DNA from: Eledone cirrhosa
Taxonomy: Eukaryota
NCBI GenBank assembly: GCA_964016885.1
Contig: OZ024753.1
Coordinates: forward strand, 42,966,001 to 43,030,000
DNA length: 64,000 nucleotides
Direction of reading: 5' to 3'
Every line of letters begins with the position of its first letter. Position 1 is the first letter of the stretch. The position numbers and the translations under genes were made by a program. Below are positions 4,969 to 61,096 of the stretch, in pieces. The notes under the pieces were generated by a model that made no database searches, was not told where the DNA came from, and was given only the letters and a program-made list of their open reading frames with translations.

Positions 4969-5004
4969 TCTTCTGATGAAGGACTAATGTCCAAAACGTT
5001 AAGA
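4969..5004 (+). ncRNA. Decayed minimal type I hammerhead ribozyme (same family as 36675)
   Basis: TCTT-CTGATGA-A-GGAC-taat-GTCC-aAAAC-GTT-AAGA, with G12 mutated to A. The downstream ~80 nt resembles the revcomp of 36590-36675. Confidence 0.65.
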
Positions 5005-7922: not shown

Positions 7923-7961
7923 AATATATATATATATATATATATATATGACTCTTTTTCT

Positions 7962-8009
<48 letters not shown>

Positions 8010-8011
<2 letters not shown>

Positions 8012-8369
8012 TGCAGTGTCAATGTGTGTGAACAACCCAGCATGAATGCATTGAGAGAGAAACTGTGTCTGAGAGGGATAGAATGTAGTGTACGGGAGAG
8101 GAGACTGAGGTGGTATGGACATGTGATGCGCATGGAGGATGACCGATGGGTGAAGAAGTGCCAGGAAATGCCAGTTGAAGGAAGACGTGGTAGCGGAAGA
8201 CCACGAAAAACATGGGCGGAGGTGGTGAGAACAGACCTCAGATTGCTGAAGCTCACGGTGGAGATGACGAGGGACCGTGACGAGTGGAGAGATGCTGTGG
8301 TGAATAAGACCCATCCCACCCTTGCAAGCAGGGAAGAGCGGGCGTAAAATGATTATGATGATGATGATG
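8010..8369 (+). mobile_element. RTE-clade LINE 3' fragment
   Basis: ORF with RRLRWYGHVMRM...GRPRKTW...DRDEWR and an (ATG)n tail. Near identical to 17465-17824. Confidence 0.92.
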
Positions 8370-8613: not shown

Positions 8614-8616
<3 letters not shown>

Positions 8617-8776
8617 TGTTTCATTCATGAGAAATGATCAGGGAGCTCTCTGATGATTTCTCACGAATAAAACAGTTCTAGTCCTATAGAAGGTCTTCTA
8701 TATTAAAACTTTTATACTCTACTATGTATTGAGTACTTATTTACTGTGGTTACCTCCGATTCAACCCGGAATAACT
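8614..8776 (+). mobile_element. Decayed copy of mirrored-hammerhead element family H2
   Basis: Partial inverted arm plus CTGATGATTTCTCACGAATaAAACAGTTCTAGTCCTATAGAA, then a tail nearly identical to 48421-48499. Confidence 0.75.
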
Positions 8777-9328: not shown

Positions 9329-9397
9329 ATATATTCCATCTGATGAAAACGTACTGAAACACCATTGTACCTTTGAAATATGTATAATAAAATATAT
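9329..9397 (+). ncRNA. Type I hammerhead ribozyme, paralogue of 10038
   Basis: ATATATTccAT-CTGATGA-AAAcGTAC...GTACcTTT-GAAATATGTAT-A-ATaaAATATAT. Stem II co-varies with the 10038 copy. Confidence 0.65.
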
Positions 9398-10037: not shown

Positions 10038-10104
10038 TATTTTATCTGATGAGGACGTACTGTTGAACTTAACTCAGTACCTCTGAAATATGTATAATAA
10101 AATA
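10038..10104 (+). ncRNA. Type I hammerhead ribozyme with intact core
   Basis: Stem I TATTTTAT/ATAAAATA (8 bp), CTGATGA, stem II GGAcGTACTG/CAGTACcTCT, GAAA, near-palindromic stem III ATATGTAT, cleavage triplet AUA at 10094-10096. Confidence 0.78.
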
Positions 10105-11715: not shown

Positions 11716-11864
11716 GGTTCTTAATAAGGGTTAATCTGTTTATATTTATCTAAAACAGTGTATTTTGTTAGTAACAAGAGAGCTAAAGTCTTTACTAAAT
11801 GCAATATTTTGTATCCGTTATTTTCTTGTTTATTTAATTTTTTTAATCTTTTATTTATTTTCAG

Positions 11865-11984
11865 CGCAAATGTGACCAGTACTGGCCTGATGAAGGAACA
11901 CAAGTTTCATCAGGAATTTCAATTGAATGTCTTAATATAGATAAATTACCTGATTTTACGATACGCACATTCCTTTTGCAAATG
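11865..11984 (+). CDS. Receptor-type protein tyrosine phosphatase, D1 exon (RKCDQYWPDEGTQVSSGISIECLNIDKLPDFTIRTFLLQM)
   Basis: Polypyrimidine tract plus ttttcag acceptor at 11864 and gtaagt donor at 11985. 120 nt, phase 0-0, with the KCxQYWP PTP motif and FTIRTF. Upstream exons lie outside the window. Confidence 0.93.
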
Positions 11985-12304
11985 GTAAGTCTAGCTTTCA
12001 TTACTAATAAACTTGACCCTCAATTTCATTGTCTAGCCTAGGACTTCTCAAACTGTCTTGCAACACCCCTAAGGCAGTGGTTCCACAATTTGTTTTACTC
12101 ACAGCACACTTTAGTAACTATATTTTGGCACACTTTGTTGCTAAACTTGAAGATTTATTCAAAAGAAATATTTATATATCTATCAACAGAGCAGAAAAAC
12201 AAGATCTTCAAGCATTTCTACACAAACCAGTGCATTATTCTACTGTGGTACATAGCGGTTAAAATGTAGTTTTGCTAACCTACAAGACAGGAGAGTTTAT
12301 AAAA

Positions 12305-16390: not shown

Positions 16391-16880
16391 ATATAAGACA
16401 GCGAATTGCAGAACCATCAGAACATTGGATAGAATACTTTGTGATATTAGTTCTGGCTCTCTGTTCTCTAACTTCCAATCTCACCATGGTCAACTTTACC
16501 TTTCATCCATTCAAGGTCGATAAAAACAAAGTACCAGTCAAGTACTGGGGTCGATTCTTTCTCTATATTTCTTTCTCACTCCTCTGGAAGAAATCTGCTG
16601 TATTCAGAGCTGGAGAGGAAATGGGTTCTACCAGGTTTTAAAATGCCTGGGAAACACTGTATGTCAATACAGTGCCCCTGAGATTCACTCAGGGGTTATG
16701 ACACCATTCATGTATTATATAACTTCAATATGACTTGATATTTGTTTCACAGAAACAAATCCCATACAGTTTATATCGTATTGATCTAAATTCTGTTATA
16801 TTTAACTTATGTTATATCTTGAAAATATATCACAACTATACTGTATCTGGTTAAATAATTGTTTCTTTTGTATTCTTCAG

Positions 16881-17029
16881 AATGGCATATCGAAAATCGT
16901 CAAACAATTCCACTACACAACCTGGCCCGATCATGGCGTGCCGAAATTTGGTAATTCACTAATATTATTCCGGCAGAAAATACGTGCGTTTGACCGGCTC
17001 GACAATGGACCTGTTATTGTTCATTGCAG
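16881..17029 (+). CDS. RPTP D1 exon with WPD loop (NGISKIVKQFHYTTWPDHGVPKFGNSLILFRQKIRAFDRLDNGPVIVHC-S)
   Basis: ttcttcag acceptor and gtaaaa donor. 149 nt, phase 0-2. Contains QFHYTTWPDHGVP and GPVIVHC. Confidence 0.96.
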
Positions 17030-17069: not shown

Positions 17070-17277
17070 TTTGCATTACTCTATATTTACTATTGTATTT
17101 TGACGGCAAACACTTTATTTCACATATTTATCTCACATAATATCGAATCTACGAGATTTTGATATTATGTATTTTGAGAACAATACCTTAACATAAGTAT
17201 GAGCAGCCAGTTACGACCAGTTTGAACAGAAAGAGGTAAGAGAATTCTGGTCGGACACAGCCAATTTAAATGCTAAA
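17070..17277 (-). mobile_element. Truncated TTAA MITE just downstream of the WPD exon
   Basis: Body matches the 13275 copy. The right TIR stops at AAATGCTAAA next to an RTE insertion. Confidence 0.78.
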
Positions 17278-17304
17278 CCTCACCATATTTAGAAATCTTT
17301 TTAC

Positions 17305-17824
17305 GCCCATACTTGACGAAGAAGGGTTTCTCCCTGCGTACGAAAGGCCGGTTGTATGATGCCTGTGTGAGGAGCGCGATGCTGCATGGTAGTGAGACAT
17401 GGGCAGCTACCGCAGAAGATATGCGACGGCTGGAGAGAAATGAGGCAAGCATGCTCCGTTGGATGTGCAGTGTAAATGTGCGTGAACGACCCAGCATAAA
17501 TGTGTTGAGAGAGAAACTGTGTCTGAGAGGGATAGAATGTAGTGTACGGGAGAGGAGACTGAGGTGGTATGGACATGTGATGCGCATGGAGGATGACCGA
17601 TGGGTGAAGAAGTGCCAGAAAATGCCAGTTGAAGGAAGACGTGGTAGAGGTAGACCACGAAAAACATGGGCGGAGGTGGTGAGAACAGACCTCAGATCAT
17701 TGAAGCTCACGGTGGAGATGACGAGGGACCGTGACGAGTGGAGAGATGCTGTGCTGAATAAGACCCGTCCCACCCTTGCAAGCAGGGAAGAGCGGACGTA
17801 AAATGATGATGATGATGATGATGA
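17305..17824 (+). mobile_element. RTE-clade LINE 3' fragment (5'-truncated, ORF uninterrupted)
   Basis: KGRLYDACVRSAMLHGSETW...MLRWMC...LRWYGHV...GRPRKTW followed by an (ATG)n tail. Confidence 0.93.
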
Positions 17825-20141: not shown

Positions 20142-20171
<30 letters not shown>

Positions 20172-20172
<1 letters not shown>

Positions 20173-20361
20173 GGAACAAGTATGACCCCGATGGCAGAGC
20201 TCAAGCCGTTTTGAAGGCTATTTCCGTCCAGAAATAGCCATCGAAACGGCTTGAGCTCTGCCATCGGGGTCATACTTTTTCCTATTACCCACTCTACTAC
20301 CCTAAGTATTGAGTACTCTGGTGCGTTATGGTCCATCTGGTTCCTTACCACAACTCCTTCG

Positions 20362-20363
<2 letters not shown>
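20172..20363 (+). mobile_element. (TA)n-embedded hairpin/half-hammerhead element H1
   Basis: ~53-bp inverted arms (20172-20224 / 20231-20283) plus an 80-nt tail. Homologous to 43140, 45194 and 46096. Confidence 0.85.
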
Positions 20364-20417
<54 letters not shown>

Positions 20418-21653: not shown

Positions 21654-21815
21654 CCACACTGTAAATGTAGTTGGTGTTAGGAAGGACAATATACAGTCTG
21701 GCCAACTGGCCAGATTTGTCTCATGATGTGGGTGACCTGTCTAACCTATGTAAGCATGGGAAATGGACGTTAAACGATGATGATCATGACAATGATTATA
21801 TATATGTATATATAT

Positions 21816-22002
21816 GAATTATTTCCGTAGAAAGGGTAAAGGAAAGGAGAGTGCTCTATGTAAGCTACAGAGCTAGTTAGTTATGTAATAAACAACATAA
21901 GACAATTACCCATTTACCAAAGGTTTCACGAAGACAGACGTCTGTGTTCAGCTCGTCTGTCTTCGTGAAACCTTTGGTAAATGGAATAATTGTCTTATGT
22001 TG
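21816..22002 (-). mobile_element. Hairpin/half-hammerhead element H3
   Basis: ~48-bp arms (21893-21940 / 21954-22002) containing GAAACC...GGGT-A, with a ~77-nt tail ending at (TA)n. Confidence 0.65.
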
Positions 22003-25200: not shown

Positions 25201-25865
25201 TTTGGCAGTATCGGTAGAGAGTCGGACGCCATGCTTTGCAGCACAGTTAGGTTGCTTTATAGTCTGAGTTCAAATCCCGCCGAGGTTGACTTTGCCTTTC
25301 ATCCTTACGGGGTCGATAAAATAAAGTACCAGTAATGTACTGGGTAATTGCTGGCCTTGTGCCAAAAGTAGAAACAATTATTGTTATTATTATTATTATT
25401 ATTATTATTGATTGGTAATCAGTAGATCATTGGACAACATCCTTTGCAGGATATTTTTATGTTCTGAGTTCAAATCCTGCCGACGTTGACTTTGCCTTTC
25501 ATCCTTACGGGGTCGATAAAATAAAGTACCAGTAATACACTGGGATAATTGCTGGCCTTGTGCCTAAAATAGAAACAATTATTATTATTATTTGAAACTT
25601 CCTTTGAATGTTGCTTCTTTCCCACATCATTCCAAGTGTCAAGCTGACATCTAAGGCAAAATAATTGTTTCTACTTTTGGCACAAGGCCAGCAATTACCC
25701 AATGCATTACTTTGCCTTTCGACCTTACGGGGTCGATAAAATTTATCGACCCCGTAAGGACGAAAGGCAAAGTTGACCTCGACGGGATTTGAACTCAGAT
25801 CGTATAGGGACGTAACTATGCAGGAAAGCATGGCATCCGACCCTCTACCAACACTGCCAATTCAC
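25201..25865. mobile_element. Cluster of three SINE B copies (+,+,-)
   Basis: 25201-25408 (+), ~25410-25590 (+) and 25662-25865 (-, with an internal fold-back at 25709-25773). Confidence 0.85.
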
Positions 25866-30492: not shown

Positions 30493-30548
30493 GGAAAAAA
30501 TGAAACAAAATTTCATTTCCCACTCTTAGTACGGCTGTTACTTAAATA

Positions 30549-31033
30549 TAAGTATGTACACGTACATACATATATGTATACAGACATACAGTAGTATGTA
30601 TATATATATATATATATATATACATGTACACATATATATATGTACGTATGGATTCACTGAACATTTATTATAATGCTCGGCGTGTTTGTAAACCCGGCCG
30701 ATTAACCCACTCGATATGCAAATTGGGCTACTCAGCCGTTAATATGCATAAGGTAAGTATATACGTTCAACAATCTGGCAGGAAGGTTGATGTTGCTGAC
30801 GATAGCTAATAAGCTTGAAACTAGTACAGCGTTCCTTTGTCAGTGTTGAACAAACGAGCAACGATGGTTGCTGGACACTATGGCTTAATACTGGATGTTT
30901 GTTTACAAACACACCGAGCATTATAATAAATGTTCGGTGAATCCATACGTACATATATATGTGTGTGCATGTATGTATATATATATACATACTACTGTAC
31001 GTCTGTATACATATATGTATGTATGTGTACATA

Positions 31034-31037
<4 letters not shown>
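30549..31037 (+). mobile_element. Hammerhead-bearing element with ~140-bp inverted terminal duplication
   Basis: Arms 30549-30693 / 30901-31037, hammerhead at 30790-30832. A second copy without the inversion lies at 33996-34342 (-). Confidence 0.8.
30790..30832 (+). ncRNA. Minimal type I hammerhead ribozyme
   Basis: ATGTTG-CTGACGA-T-AGCT-aata-AGCT-T-GAA-ACTAGT-A-CAGCGT. Palindromic stem III, GUA site, U-U at 10.1/11.1. Confidence 0.75.
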
Positions 31038-31079
<42 letters not shown>

Positions 31080-33990: not shown

Positions 33991-34207
33991 GAATATAAGT
34001 ATGTATACGTACATACATATATGTATTCAGACGTACAGTAGTATGTATATATATATATATACATACATGCACACATATATATATGTACGTATGGATTCAC
34101 CGAACATTTATTATAATGCTCGGTGTGTTTGTAAACAAACATCCCGAATTAAGCCGTACAGTGTCTAACAACCATCGTTGCTCATTTGTTCAACTCTGAC
34201 AAAGGAA

Positions 34208-34248
34208 CGCTGTACTAGTTTCAAGCTTATTAGCTATCATCAGCAACG
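34208..34248 (-). ncRNA. Minimal type I hammerhead ribozyme (copy of 30790)
   Basis: Minus strand CGTTG-CTGATGA-T-AGCT-aata-AGCT-T-GAA-ACTAGT-A-CAGCG. Confidence 0.75.
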
Positions 34249-34659
34249 CATACCTTCCTGCCAGATGATTGAACGTCTGAAAGTATATACTTTCCTTATG
34301 CATATTAACGGCTGAGCAGCCTAATGTGCATTTCAAGTGAGTTTGTTCCCTAGATTTCTTTGGTTGTATTAGTGTGGAATTTGAAGCAATTAAAACCTCT
34401 GCAACAGTAGAAAAATATTTAAACCTTATCCTGTCATCATTCAATGATAAAGACTGTAATCGATATCATAGAATATAAACTCTGTGATACAATACTTCAT
34501 ACTTCATCTTACAAATGCATCTTCTACACATTCGGAAATGAATACTTGGGGAATTATGTTATTTAGCTAACGGTTCTTGGTAATCTGGAGAAACAAAGCA
34601 ACGGTTTCAATTTCACTTGGTGAACGAAAACTAGTAAAACTTTGTCTACCATTGCTGTG

Positions 34660-35165: not shown

Positions 35166-35261
35166 AAAATAAAGAAAGAGATCTGGGTAAAACCTGACCT
35201 TTTATTCTCTCCATGAAATTAATAAAGAGTGCATTTCTTAGAAACTAAGTCTTGAGTTTAT

Positions 35262-35327
35262 GTTTCAGCTGATGATTTCTTTCAAATGAAACAGTTCTAG
35301 TTCTGTAGAAACCATATCTTTATTAAA
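35262..35327 (+). ncRNA. Decayed H2-family hammerhead
   Basis: GTTTCag-CTGATGA-TTTCTTTCAAAT-GAA-ACAG-ttctagtt-CTGT-A-GAAAC. Confidence 0.55.
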
Positions 35328-36674: not shown

Positions 36675-36710
36675 TCTTGACGTTTCGGACGCTAGTCCTT
36701 CATCAGAAGA
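36675..36710 (-). ncRNA. Minimal type I hammerhead ribozyme (Penelope-type, extra A after A9)
   Basis: Minus strand TCTT-CTGATGA-A-GGAC-tagc-GTCC-GAA-ACGT-C-AAGA. Palindromic ACGU stem III, GUC site. Confidence 0.82.
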
Positions 36711-37141
36711 AAGAATGAGAAATAAGATAGATTGAGAGGACTGGCGGGTTGGAATTGGAAAAAAATGTCTTCAGATAAAAATAACAGGTCCATTCATGTT
36801 GACATCTCTTGCAAAACTGTTGGTGCTGGCGTTTTGTGTATGATTTATTTTTTAGAAAAGTGGATGATGGAACGCTTCTACCTGAAATGGAAAAAGAATA
36901 TAAATCATCATCACTGTTTAATGTCTTATTACATATAGATGTATATATACATGTGTGTATGTGTGAATATCTGGGTTTCTGTCTGTGTGTGTGTGTGTGT
37001 GCCTCTGTGTATATGTGCATATGTGTGTTGCTATGTCTTCATGCAAGGTCATGGAACATTGTTGATCTGATTCCAATTATAGTCTTTTGTGTTGTTGTTT
37101 TTTTTAAAATCTACCATGAATGTCAAGTTTAATATAAAAAT

Positions 37142-37193
37142 GGCTTCTACAAGACTAGAACCGTTTCATTCAAAAGAAATCACCAGGAAAGCC
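37142..37193 (-). ncRNA. Decayed H2-family hammerhead
   Basis: Minus strand GGCTTTC-CTGgTGA-TTTC-tttt-GAAT-GAAACGG-ttctagtc-TTGT-A-GAAGCC. Confidence 0.55.
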
Positions 37194-37206
37194 CTGATTG
37201 AACCTG

Positions 37207-37708: not shown

Positions 37709-37761
37709 ATTTTTCTTCTTATTCTTCTTCCAAATGTAATACAAATAATATTGTCTTTCAG

Positions 37762-37897
37762 TGCCGGGGTTGGACGTACTGGAACATATATTGCCATTGA
37801 TGCTCAGCTAGAGCAAGCTCGAGAAGAAGGGATTGTTGATGTTCATAATTTTGTGCAGCTTATGAGACGGCAGAGAGTAAACATGGTGCAGACATTG
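37762..37897 (+). CDS. RPTP D1 exon completing the P-loop ((S)AGVGRTGTYIAIDAQLEQAREEGIVDVHNFVQLMRRQRVNMVQTL)
   Basis: tctttcag acceptor and gtatgt donor. 136 nt, phase 2-0. Joins the previous exon to give HCSAGVGRTG and ends in RxQRxxMVQT. Confidence 0.96.
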
Positions 37898-43090: not shown

Positions 43091-43139
<49 letters not shown>

Positions 43140-43141
<2 letters not shown>

Positions 43142-43328
43142 CGAAGGAAATGTGGTAAGGAACCAGGTGGACCATAACGCACCAAAGTACTCAATACATA
43201 GGGTAGTAGAGTGGGTAATCGGAACCAGTAAGACCCCGACGGCTGAGCTCAAGCCGTTTCGACGGCCAATTCTGGACAGAATTAGCCGTCGAAACGGCTT
43301 GAGCTCAGCCGTCGGGGTCTTACTGGTT

Positions 43329-43330
<2 letters not shown>
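43140..43330 (-). mobile_element. Hairpin/half-hammerhead element H1
   Basis: 53-bp arms 43221-43273 / 43278-43330 with one mismatch, (TA)n on both sides. Confidence 0.88.
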
Positions 43331-43370
<40 letters not shown>

Positions 43371-45193: not shown

Positions 45194-45195
<2 letters not shown>

Positions 45196-45389
45196 CAAAG
45201 GAAATGTGGTAAAGATGGACCATAACGCACCAAAGTACTCAATACTTAGGGTAGTAGAGTGGGTAATAGGAACGAGTAGGACCCCGACGGCTGAGCTCAA
45301 GCCGTTTCGACGGCTAATTCTGCACTAAATTTAGTCCAGAATTAGCCGTCGAAACGGCTTGAGCTCAGCCGTCGGGGTCCTACTCGTTC
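45194..45389 (-). mobile_element. Hairpin/half-hammerhead element H1
   Basis: Perfect ~53-bp arms from 45270 to 45389 with a palindromic loop ACTAAATTTAGT, (TA)n flanks. Confidence 0.88.
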
Positions 45390-45421
<32 letters not shown>

Positions 45422-46095: not shown

Positions 46096-46261
46096 AACGA
46101 AGGTGGTGTGGTAAGGAACGAGATGGACCATAACACACCAGAGTACTCAATGCTTAGGGTAGTAGAGTGGGTAATAGGAAAATGTAGTAGGAAAATGTTC
46201 TGAGTCCAGAAATAGCCGTCGAAACGGCTTGAGCTCTGCCGTCGGGGTTAAACATTTTCCT
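46096..46261 (-). mobile_element. H1 element with one arm mostly deleted
   Basis: Tail intact. The remnant AGGAAAATGTT mirrors AACATTTTCCT. Confidence 0.8.
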
Positions 46262-46277
46262 AAATATATATATATAT

Positions 46278-46354
46278 TACAGGCTGTTAAAAAATGTAGA
46301 CACACTTCAACAGTATTCTAATAAAAGTATGTATACATTTTTTAGGTACACCCT

Positions 46355-46357
<3 letters not shown>
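46278..46357. mobile_element. 80-bp Tc1/mariner-like MITE
   Basis: TA-CAGGCTGT..AAAAAATGTAGACACACT / AGTATGTATACATTTTTT..ACACCCTG-TA. Confidence 0.65.
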
Positions 46358-46387
<30 letters not shown>

Positions 46388-47840: not shown

Positions 47841-48023
47841 GGATGGGCAGTATCGGTAGAGGGTCGGACGCCATGCTTTCCAGCATAGAGTTACGTCCCT
47901 TTACGGGCTGAGTTCAAATCCCGCCGAGGTTGACTTTGCTTTCATCCTTACGGGGTCGATAAAATAAAGTACCAGTAATGCACTGGGTAATTGCTGGCCT
48001 TGTGCCTAATGTAGAAACAATTA
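47841..48023 (+). mobile_element. SINE family B
   Basis: tRNA-like head, B box GTTCAAATCC, conserved central domain and AT-rich tail. Confidence 0.88.
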
Positions 48024-48136
48024 CTATATATATATATATATATACACATACATGACAATGCAAAATAAACGGTAGATTTTGGAATACATTGAAGGTAACA
48101 AAGAAGTTAGAGTGTTACCTGTTATCTTATTTACCT

Positions 48137-48262: not shown

Positions 48263-48306
<44 letters not shown>

Positions 48307-48308
<2 letters not shown>

Positions 48309-48498
48309 TGAGATTCTACAGGACTAGAACTGTTTCATTCTTTAGAAATCATCAGGAATCTCAGGTGATTCCTGATGATTTCTAAAGAATGAAACAGTTC
48401 TAGTCCTGTAGAATCTCATCTATATTAAAACTTTTATACTCTGCAATGTATTGAGTACCTTACTTACTGTGGTTACCTCCGATTCAACCCGGAATAAC

Positions 48499-48499
<1 letters not shown>
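48307..48499 (+). mobile_element. H2 element: perfect 54-bp inverted repeat, each arm a complete hammerhead ribozyme, plus an 80-nt tail
   Basis: Arms 48307-48360 / 48367-48420. Arm sequence GATTC-CTGATGA-TTTC-taaa-GAAT-GAA-ACAG-ttctagtc-CTGT-A-GAATC. (TA)n flanks. Confidence 0.85.
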
Positions 48500-48532
<33 letters not shown>

Positions 48533-58754: not shown

Positions 58755-58904
58755 GAGCAATATGTGTATGTATATGATGTGCTACTAGAGGCATTGTTAT
58801 GTGGGGATACAACAATATGCTGTGATTCATTTCCATCCTTTTATGCTAGTCTGTGCGAGTTCGATCCTAGCATAGGAAAAAGTAAACTGGAGGAACAATT
58901 TGAG
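58755..58904 (+). CDS. RPTP exon: end of D1 Q-loop and D1-D2 linker (EQYVYVYDVLLEALLCGDTTICCDSFPSFYASLCEFDPSIGKSKLEEQFE)
   Basis: tttctttacag acceptor and gtaaga donor. 150 nt, phase 0-0. EQY..Y..LLEA..CGDT and LEEQF are typical of tandem-domain RPTPs. Confidence 0.93.
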
Positions 58905-58919
58905 GTAAGATATAAATCT

Positions 58920-60944: not shown

Positions 60945-61096
60945 ATGAACTGTGGTTGCTTATTCTATTAACTGTATCCATTCACTGCAGACTTATTATA
61001 TTTAACTGTGCAGCAGAGAAATTCCCATAATGCACTGTAATATATTAAGTCTGCAGTGAATAGACACAGTTAAGAGACTATGCAATCACAGTTCAT
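60945..61096. mobile_element. Imperfect palindromic (MITE-like) element
   Basis: ~58-bp arms ATGAACTGTG...TTCACTGCAGACTTA / TAAGTCTGCAGTGAA...CACAGTTCAT. Confidence 0.6.

Follow-up and report, generated by a model that had tools for sequence, protein, structure and literature searches.

The locus and the geometry of the palindrome

The palindrome lies in a 64-kb stretch of DNA (the window), in which a receptor-type tyrosine phosphatase gene is represented by four plus-strand exons (11862–12029, 16866–17027, 37745–37897 and 58755–58907). One of them has 98% identity to an Octopus bimaculoides protein, which identifies the host as an octopus. The last two of these flank a plus-strand intron at approximately 37898–58754, and within it an insertion of about 190–200 bp occupies positions 48307–48499. 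Both ends of the insertion adjoin (TA)n, with one run at 48269–48306 on the left and another at 48500–48530 on the right, and a target-site duplication is unreadable inside (TA)n. The left run is the presumed insertion target; (TA)n is tabulated as the target for 26 of 27 Hydra-clade families of Penelope-like elements (PLEs) (Craig et al. 2021, PMC8557442).

The initial annotation had described perfect 54-bp arms around a 6-nt loop, and this was borne out: the segments 48302–48360 and 48367–48425 match as reverse complements, without a single mismatch, over 59 bp (54 bp counted from 48307, the remainder being shared with the TA run), and a 6-nt loop lies between them at 48361–48366. Five shuffles of 30 kb gave chance arms of at most 8–10 bp. 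The left arm (48302–48360, minus strand) is inverted and tail-less and holds a complete minus-strand type I hammerhead with its core from 48355. The right arm holds the forward type I hammerhead (48367–48415, plus strand), identified from a descriptor, folding and read variants, followed by a short stretch (48416–48425) up to the first 3' end, which is also the limit of the inverted arm. Comparison of the arms leaves a tail of 74 nt (48426–48499) on one side only; it falls outside the palindrome, and the two ends of the element are thus not inverted repeats of each other. The tail contains a hairpin motif, RCTC...TWGAGYAC (48438–48458).

The hammerhead motif

In the forward arm, stem I pairs 48367–48371 with 48411–48415 (5 bp on the plus strand, 8 bp on the minus strand) and the core consists of 48372–48378 and 48391–48394. 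A U·U apposition at 48379/48390 sits below a 3-bp stem II (48380–48382/48387–48389), and stem III (48394–48397/48406–48409; 4 bp) is closed by an 8-nt loop containing a 4-nt palindrome. The GUA triplet ends at 48410, so that cleavage is predicted after A48410 on the plus strand and after 48317 on the minus strand. The claim that each arm carries a full hammerhead holds: the helices described are found in both, including the 8-bp stem I on the minus strand, and both have the conserved core (CUGANGA, GAAA and UH) around three helices. A relaxed type I descriptor gave seven matches in the window, both arms among them, against a total of four in 30 shuffled windows; the matches at 10046 and 36448 are doubtful by eye. 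Rfam gave no significant hammerhead (Hammerhead_3 scored 13.2 bits against a cut-off of 48.5), and with the window, the element and one arm it returned only sub-threshold matches of the microRNA-hairpin type. A type III hammerhead at the centre of the palindrome was considered and rejected by eye, as no UH precedes the centre.

The U·U at positions 10.1/11.1 had been flagged as non-canonical. The canonical G10.1–C11.1 pair is indeed absent, with U·U in all four copies of this family (H2) in the window, but the apposition is no oddity: it is common in Hydra-clade PLEs, occurring in 14 of the 26 Hydra hammerhead rows tabulated by Craig et al. (2021, PMC8557442), and the axolotl hammerhead HHR_Amex2, which has the same U·U, is reported to cleave (Cervera and de la Pena 2020, PMC7229834).

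Folding places a single arm in the hammerhead fold with a predicted probability of 5e-5, and the stem III segment pairs far better as a dimer than alone (−12.8 versus −1.4 kcal/mol). Lünse et al. reportedly described dimeric PLE hammerheads. A rare single-arm hammerhead fold together with a stronger stem III dimer fits both the axolotl U·U motif that cleaves (PMC7229834) and the reported dimeric action of PLE hammerheads (Cervera 2014), which are described as weak in vitro (Cervera 2014; Frangieh et al. 2024, PMC11167929).

Copies and conservation of family H2

The forward arm plus tail was matched against four of 23 sequencing runs. Two runs from the host species gave 10,500 and 360 matching contigs, 6,819 RAD reads matched, and a second organism contributed 5,779 contigs; none of these figures is a copy number. 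If the density of four H2 copies per 64 kb were general, a genome would hold tens of thousands.

Among 40 of the 54 variant rows, only one of the 41 positions of 48369–48413 outside loop II varies (G12, in 7.6% of RAD reads), against 15 of 23 positions in 48414–48436. All four loop II positions vary (18–49% in the same rows). Read matching is biased towards conserved reads, but the contrast between core and flank is taken within the same reads, so the expectation that the core should be better conserved than its flanks is upheld at the level of the family. These data support the H2 motif being a hammerhead under constraint at family level.

Covariation in stem I is weaker than the initial annotation had it. 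The copies that it cited at 8614, 35262 and 37142 exist, but none of the three passes the descriptor and all are decayed. Of the four H2 copies in the window, two are clear palindromes. The second of these (8614–8776, plus strand) has no junction loop and a different junction; its arms differ at 4 of 33 positions, the left one is cut by a (GA)n run, and both cores are mutated, the one by G12>A and the other by G8>C. The copy at 35262–35327 (plus strand) is older, with an intact core and no tail, and its GTTTC lies two bases off the stem I register. Just upstream, 35240–35268 resembles a decayed inverted arm together with a loose end common in the reads, so this GTTTC perhaps does not belong to stem I. 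The remaining copy (37128–37197, minus strand), also older, has neither inverted arm nor tail; it carries A6>G and can pair in stem I only with one base bulged out. When the four window copies are compared, neither stem II nor stem III has a change on both sides of the helix. In the reads both A48368>C and T48414>G are seen, although not linked per molecule.

Probable relationship to Penelope-like elements

We consider the element likely to be the ∼135-nt terminal part, hammerhead and tail, from the 3' side of a Hydra-type PLE or of a non-coding derivative of one. It would have been inserted into (TA)n, and its inverted copy, which has no tail, was probably made at insertion; we put the probability of this reading at about 0.85. 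It shares with Hydra-clade PLEs a 3' type I hammerhead with the U·U, a short stem II and a similar stem III with GUA (the same combination of stem III and GUA is found in 3 of the 26 Hydra rows of Craig et al. 2021, PMC8557442), as well as the (TA)n target and an inverted 5'-truncated copy that gives two opposite hammerheads. Craig et al. (2021, PMC8557442) describe exactly such a pair of opposite hammerheads, arising from an attached inverted copy, in Penelope-13_HM, and list a Hydra-clade element, Hydra-1_Obim, in Octopus. The tail motif gave seven matches in the window, all of them in H2 and two other families, H1 and H4 (100 shuffles: mean 0.38, maximum 3). Compared by eye with six Hydra consensus ends, it is present in two (Hydra-2_Amil and Hydra-2_Ajap), while the consensus end of Hydra-1_Obim lacks it and has a different hammerhead. 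The tail hairpin is a candidate signal for reverse transcriptase. As judged from its sequence, the element resembles a Hydra-type PLE end, and we do not claim its assignment to a named family.

The differences from Hydra-clade PLEs are the lack of an open reading frame, the small insertion (∼190 bp), a tail of 74 nt where 30–40 bp is published for PLEs and a loop III of 8 nt compared with 1–3 nt in the Hydra-clade table (Craig et al. 2021, PMC8557442). A listing of open reading frames and a short-motif scan found no reverse transcriptase (RT) or GIY-YIG coding sequence in or beside any copy, and the element can therefore only be a stub or a derivative that is not autonomous. The sequence upstream of nine hammerhead-like motifs was also translated and contained no convincing remnant of a PLE protein. 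The inverted pLTRs of endonuclease-bearing Penelope elements are likewise head to head, with a junction palindrome and a one-sided tail, but as described by Arkhipova et al. (2013, PMC3846280) they are ∼200 bp, flank an open reading frame and often have a readable duplication, whereas here it is the bare ribozyme that is inverted. Animal non-LTR retrozymes (PMC7229834; bioRxiv 10.64898/2026.07.22.740005) resemble H2 in being non-coding, high-copy and equipped with a type I hammerhead. They differ in that the 48307 locus is inverted rather than tandem.

Other families and the mirror layout

The mirror layout is common to four families (H1–H4) in this one 64-kb window, two of which carry only half a ribozyme; half-ribozyme palindromes are as common in the window as full-ribozyme ones. 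The H1 palindromes (20170–20364, plus strand; 43139–43333, 45194–45391 and 46097–46264, minus strand) have (TA)n flanks and an 80-nt tail. They contain only the 3' half of the hammerhead (GAAA, stem III with a palindromic loop, and GUC) and turn in stem II; the copy at 46097–46264 is asymmetric. H4 (∼21815–22002, minus strand) is a 49-bp palindrome that also has the 3' half of the hammerhead and turns in stem II, with a tail motif similar by eye to the 3' end of Hydra-2_Ajap. H3 (30543–31040, plus strand; ∼34086–34350, minus strand) has an intact-looking hammerhead with U·U and GUA that resembles the Hydra-2_Ajap row; its first copy is asymmetric, with a short inverted 3' piece at the 5' end. 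The arms of H1 differ at 1–3 of ∼55 positions within copies and at 2–10 between copies, and the two ranges overlap in one pair (2 of 55 between copies, 1–3 within), a point that counts against our reading.

These comparisons bear on the possibility that the master copy already consists of the palindrome together with its tail, as a fixed non-autonomous element or a MITE or fold-back DNA element copied whole. Such an element would account for the nearly identical turning point of three H1 copies and two H2 copies, and for the recurrence in reads of a fold-back at 48369 (ten contigs of one run and five of another organism). However, the junction letters differ between the H2 palindromes at 48307 and 8614, the copies at 46097–46264 and 30543–31040 are asymmetric, at least 11 different strand-switch joints occur in the reads and the element lacks the mutually inverted ends of a fold-back transposon. 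We regard copying of the whole palindrome as improbable. The shared layout in three other families, taken with the differing junctions, makes it likely instead that the mirror half is built at insertion.

Junctions in the reads

Of 36 joints, 15 were examined, and 11 of these 15 contain a strand switch. In nine of them an inverted hammerhead ending at 48368–48389 is joined to the tail alone, starting at 48433–48449; one other is the symmetric fold-back at 48369 and one is an internal strand switch. The tail-only joints resemble the twin priming of L1. A head-to-tail joint from 48435 to 48367, corresponding to a unit of ∼78 nt, is represented by 78 reads from 16 starts and by four contigs; there is no tandem array at the 48307 locus, this joint being present elsewhere in the family. 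Some H2 copies end near 48416–48425 in (AT)n, and there is a loose end at 48432; loose ends in the reads continue into (TA)n or (CA)n. The loop of the 48307 copy is rare: the RAD depth is ∼4,600 over the core but ∼105 at 48361–48365, and what most often lies upstream is a different sequence. The loop is therefore specific to the junction of this copy. The loop II letters are alike in both arms of this copy and nearly alike in both arms of the copy at 8614.

A perfect palindrome can also be a fold-back artefact of sequencing or assembly. The arms are 100% identical and the exact junction of the 48307 locus is absent among the 15 joints listed, as an artefact would have it. Against this, the sibling palindromes carry mismatches specific to one arm, the inverted arm ends at the point of the element where it also ends in related layouts, with unique sequence to either side, and fold-back joints are found in three runs, raw reads included. 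An artefact is thus very improbable indeed.

We envisage that a PLE protein supplied in trans nicks (TA)n and starts reverse transcription at two sites ∼75 nt apart, one at the end of the tail and the other ∼10–20 nt after stem I. The forward part would come from priming at the end of the tail, and the inverted arm from priming shortly after stem I. For the step that unites them, we see about an even chance that two cDNAs are joined head to head; a single cDNA folded back on itself is a weaker but serious contender, which explains the symmetric copies equally well, and some other route to the mirror half is rather unlikely. There are published parallels. Inverted 5'-truncated copies and one-sided tails are described in PLEs (Craig et al. 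2021, PMC8557442), and for head-to-head inverted pLTRs with junction palindromes self-priming was proposed (Arkhipova et al. 2013, PMC3846280). The element PAc (Poseidon of Anolis) is reported to have two start sites that bound the tail, with both strands extended (Frangieh et al. 2024, PMC11167929), and an AT-rich target; the likeness to H2 lies in an arrangement that is shown in vitro for PAc and deduced here, and PAc belongs to another clade, with a hammerhead that overlaps the start of the open reading frame. Frangieh et al. (2024, PMC11167929) also show that the PAc hammerhead depends on the protein and that insertion in vitro does not require the hammerhead. The H2 hammerhead is likely to have worked in the parent RNA, probably either dimerized head to tail or assisted by protein, and in the 48307 copy the predicted hairpin would keep it silent as a by-product.

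Predicted silencing by the hairpin

The initial annotation had proposed that the long hairpin silences cleavage, and as a prediction this is supported: in folding calculations the hairpin beats the ribozyme fold by ∼81 kcal/mol, and the antisense arm is transcribed first, so the hairpin would form during transcription and suppress the ribozyme fold. The further proposal, that the hairpin exists to protect the host pre-mRNA, found no support. In its stronger form, selection would keep the hairpin either because it silences a ribozyme in the pre-mRNA or because it supplies double-stranded RNA to ADAR or Dicer. The element does lie in a plus-strand intron with its forward arm in sense, complete masking during transcription is predicted, the arms at 48307 are identical and, according to a preprint, retrozymes are depleted from frog introns. 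Yet the half-ribozyme palindromes of H1 and H4 share the layout and have nothing to silence, and an intact-looking sense hammerhead at 30796 persists in an intron of the same phosphatase gene, not covered by its inverted partner. In addition, the older copy at 8614 has decayed in both arms, and the ribozyme itself would seldom fold from a single arm and belongs to a class described as weak in vitro. Maintenance of the hairpin by selection therefore has little to commend it, and silencing is likely to be a consequence of the layout rather than evidence of selection.

Novelty and significance

The architecture is already published: head-to-head inverted copies are a known PLE insertion pattern. 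Possible novelties are the connection to Hydra-type elements by way of the tail hairpin, the length of the tail (∼75 nt) and the range of junctions. The small tandem unit was dismissed as a novelty, since the ∼78-nt head-to-tail units fall in the 51–972 bp range reported for retrozymes (bioRxiv 10.64898/2026.07.22.740005). Motifs of the H2 family were absent from a full-text literature search and had no matches in the supplement of Craig et al. (2021, PMC8557442), and none of the papers listed in a search on hammerheads, ribozymes and octopus deals with such a family by title or abstract. The word 'ribozyme' is absent from the main text of a paper on O. vulgaris repeats (PMC13282606), and the family was not found in the available text of PMC8969392 or of bioRxiv 10.64898/2026.07.22.740005, the supplements of which may list similar units. 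Pattern scans for the family gave no matches in viral contigs and none in metagenomes; a 19-mer had four metagenome matches, none with a hammerhead core upstream, and these were treated as chance.

A wider reading, which we hold tentatively and with more doubt than confidence, is that octopus genomes contain very-high-copy, ribozyme-sized, non-coding Hydra-type parasites in which a shared tail hairpin is the docking signal for RT and the junctions record twin priming from two start sites on one RNA. If so, the way in which PLEs build inverted insertions could be read directly from a census of junctions, which would also tell whether the turn is determined by the hammerhead helices (stem I in H2, stem II in H1 and H4). 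How tandem and inverted PLE insertions form, and what the hammerhead contributes, are stated to be open questions by Craig et al. (2021, PMC8557442). Being so small and so numerous, with a pair of defined 3' ends and with junctions that fall at ribozyme helices, the present insertions would lend themselves to such questions, and the tail hairpin, which they have in common with Hydra elements of coral and sea cucumber, is a testable candidate cis-signal. Such hairpins could possibly also feed the octopus editing machinery.

Other features of the window

Minimal hammerhead-like motifs with an extra base after A9 occur at 4973 (plus strand), 36706 (minus) and 48171 (minus). That at 36706 passes the descriptor; the other two look decayed, and 48171 lies ∼130 bp from the H2 element. 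Further CTGATGA motifs are at 9340 and 10046 (plus) and 45980 (minus); the first two have downstream sequence in common and may belong to another repeat family. One more CTGATGA, with an inverted partner, lies inside the coding sequence of the exon at 11862–12029 and is put down to chance. Reading frames at 17277–17801 and 7952–8347 resemble what we take to be the C-terminal end of an RTE-type LINE. A SINE-like repeat is present at 25463–25799 and 47860–48030, the former comprising two inverted copies with a 65-bp inner palindrome. Imperfect palindromes (∼80%) at 60945–61096 and 46261–46375 have the look of MITEs, and the second is flanked by TA.
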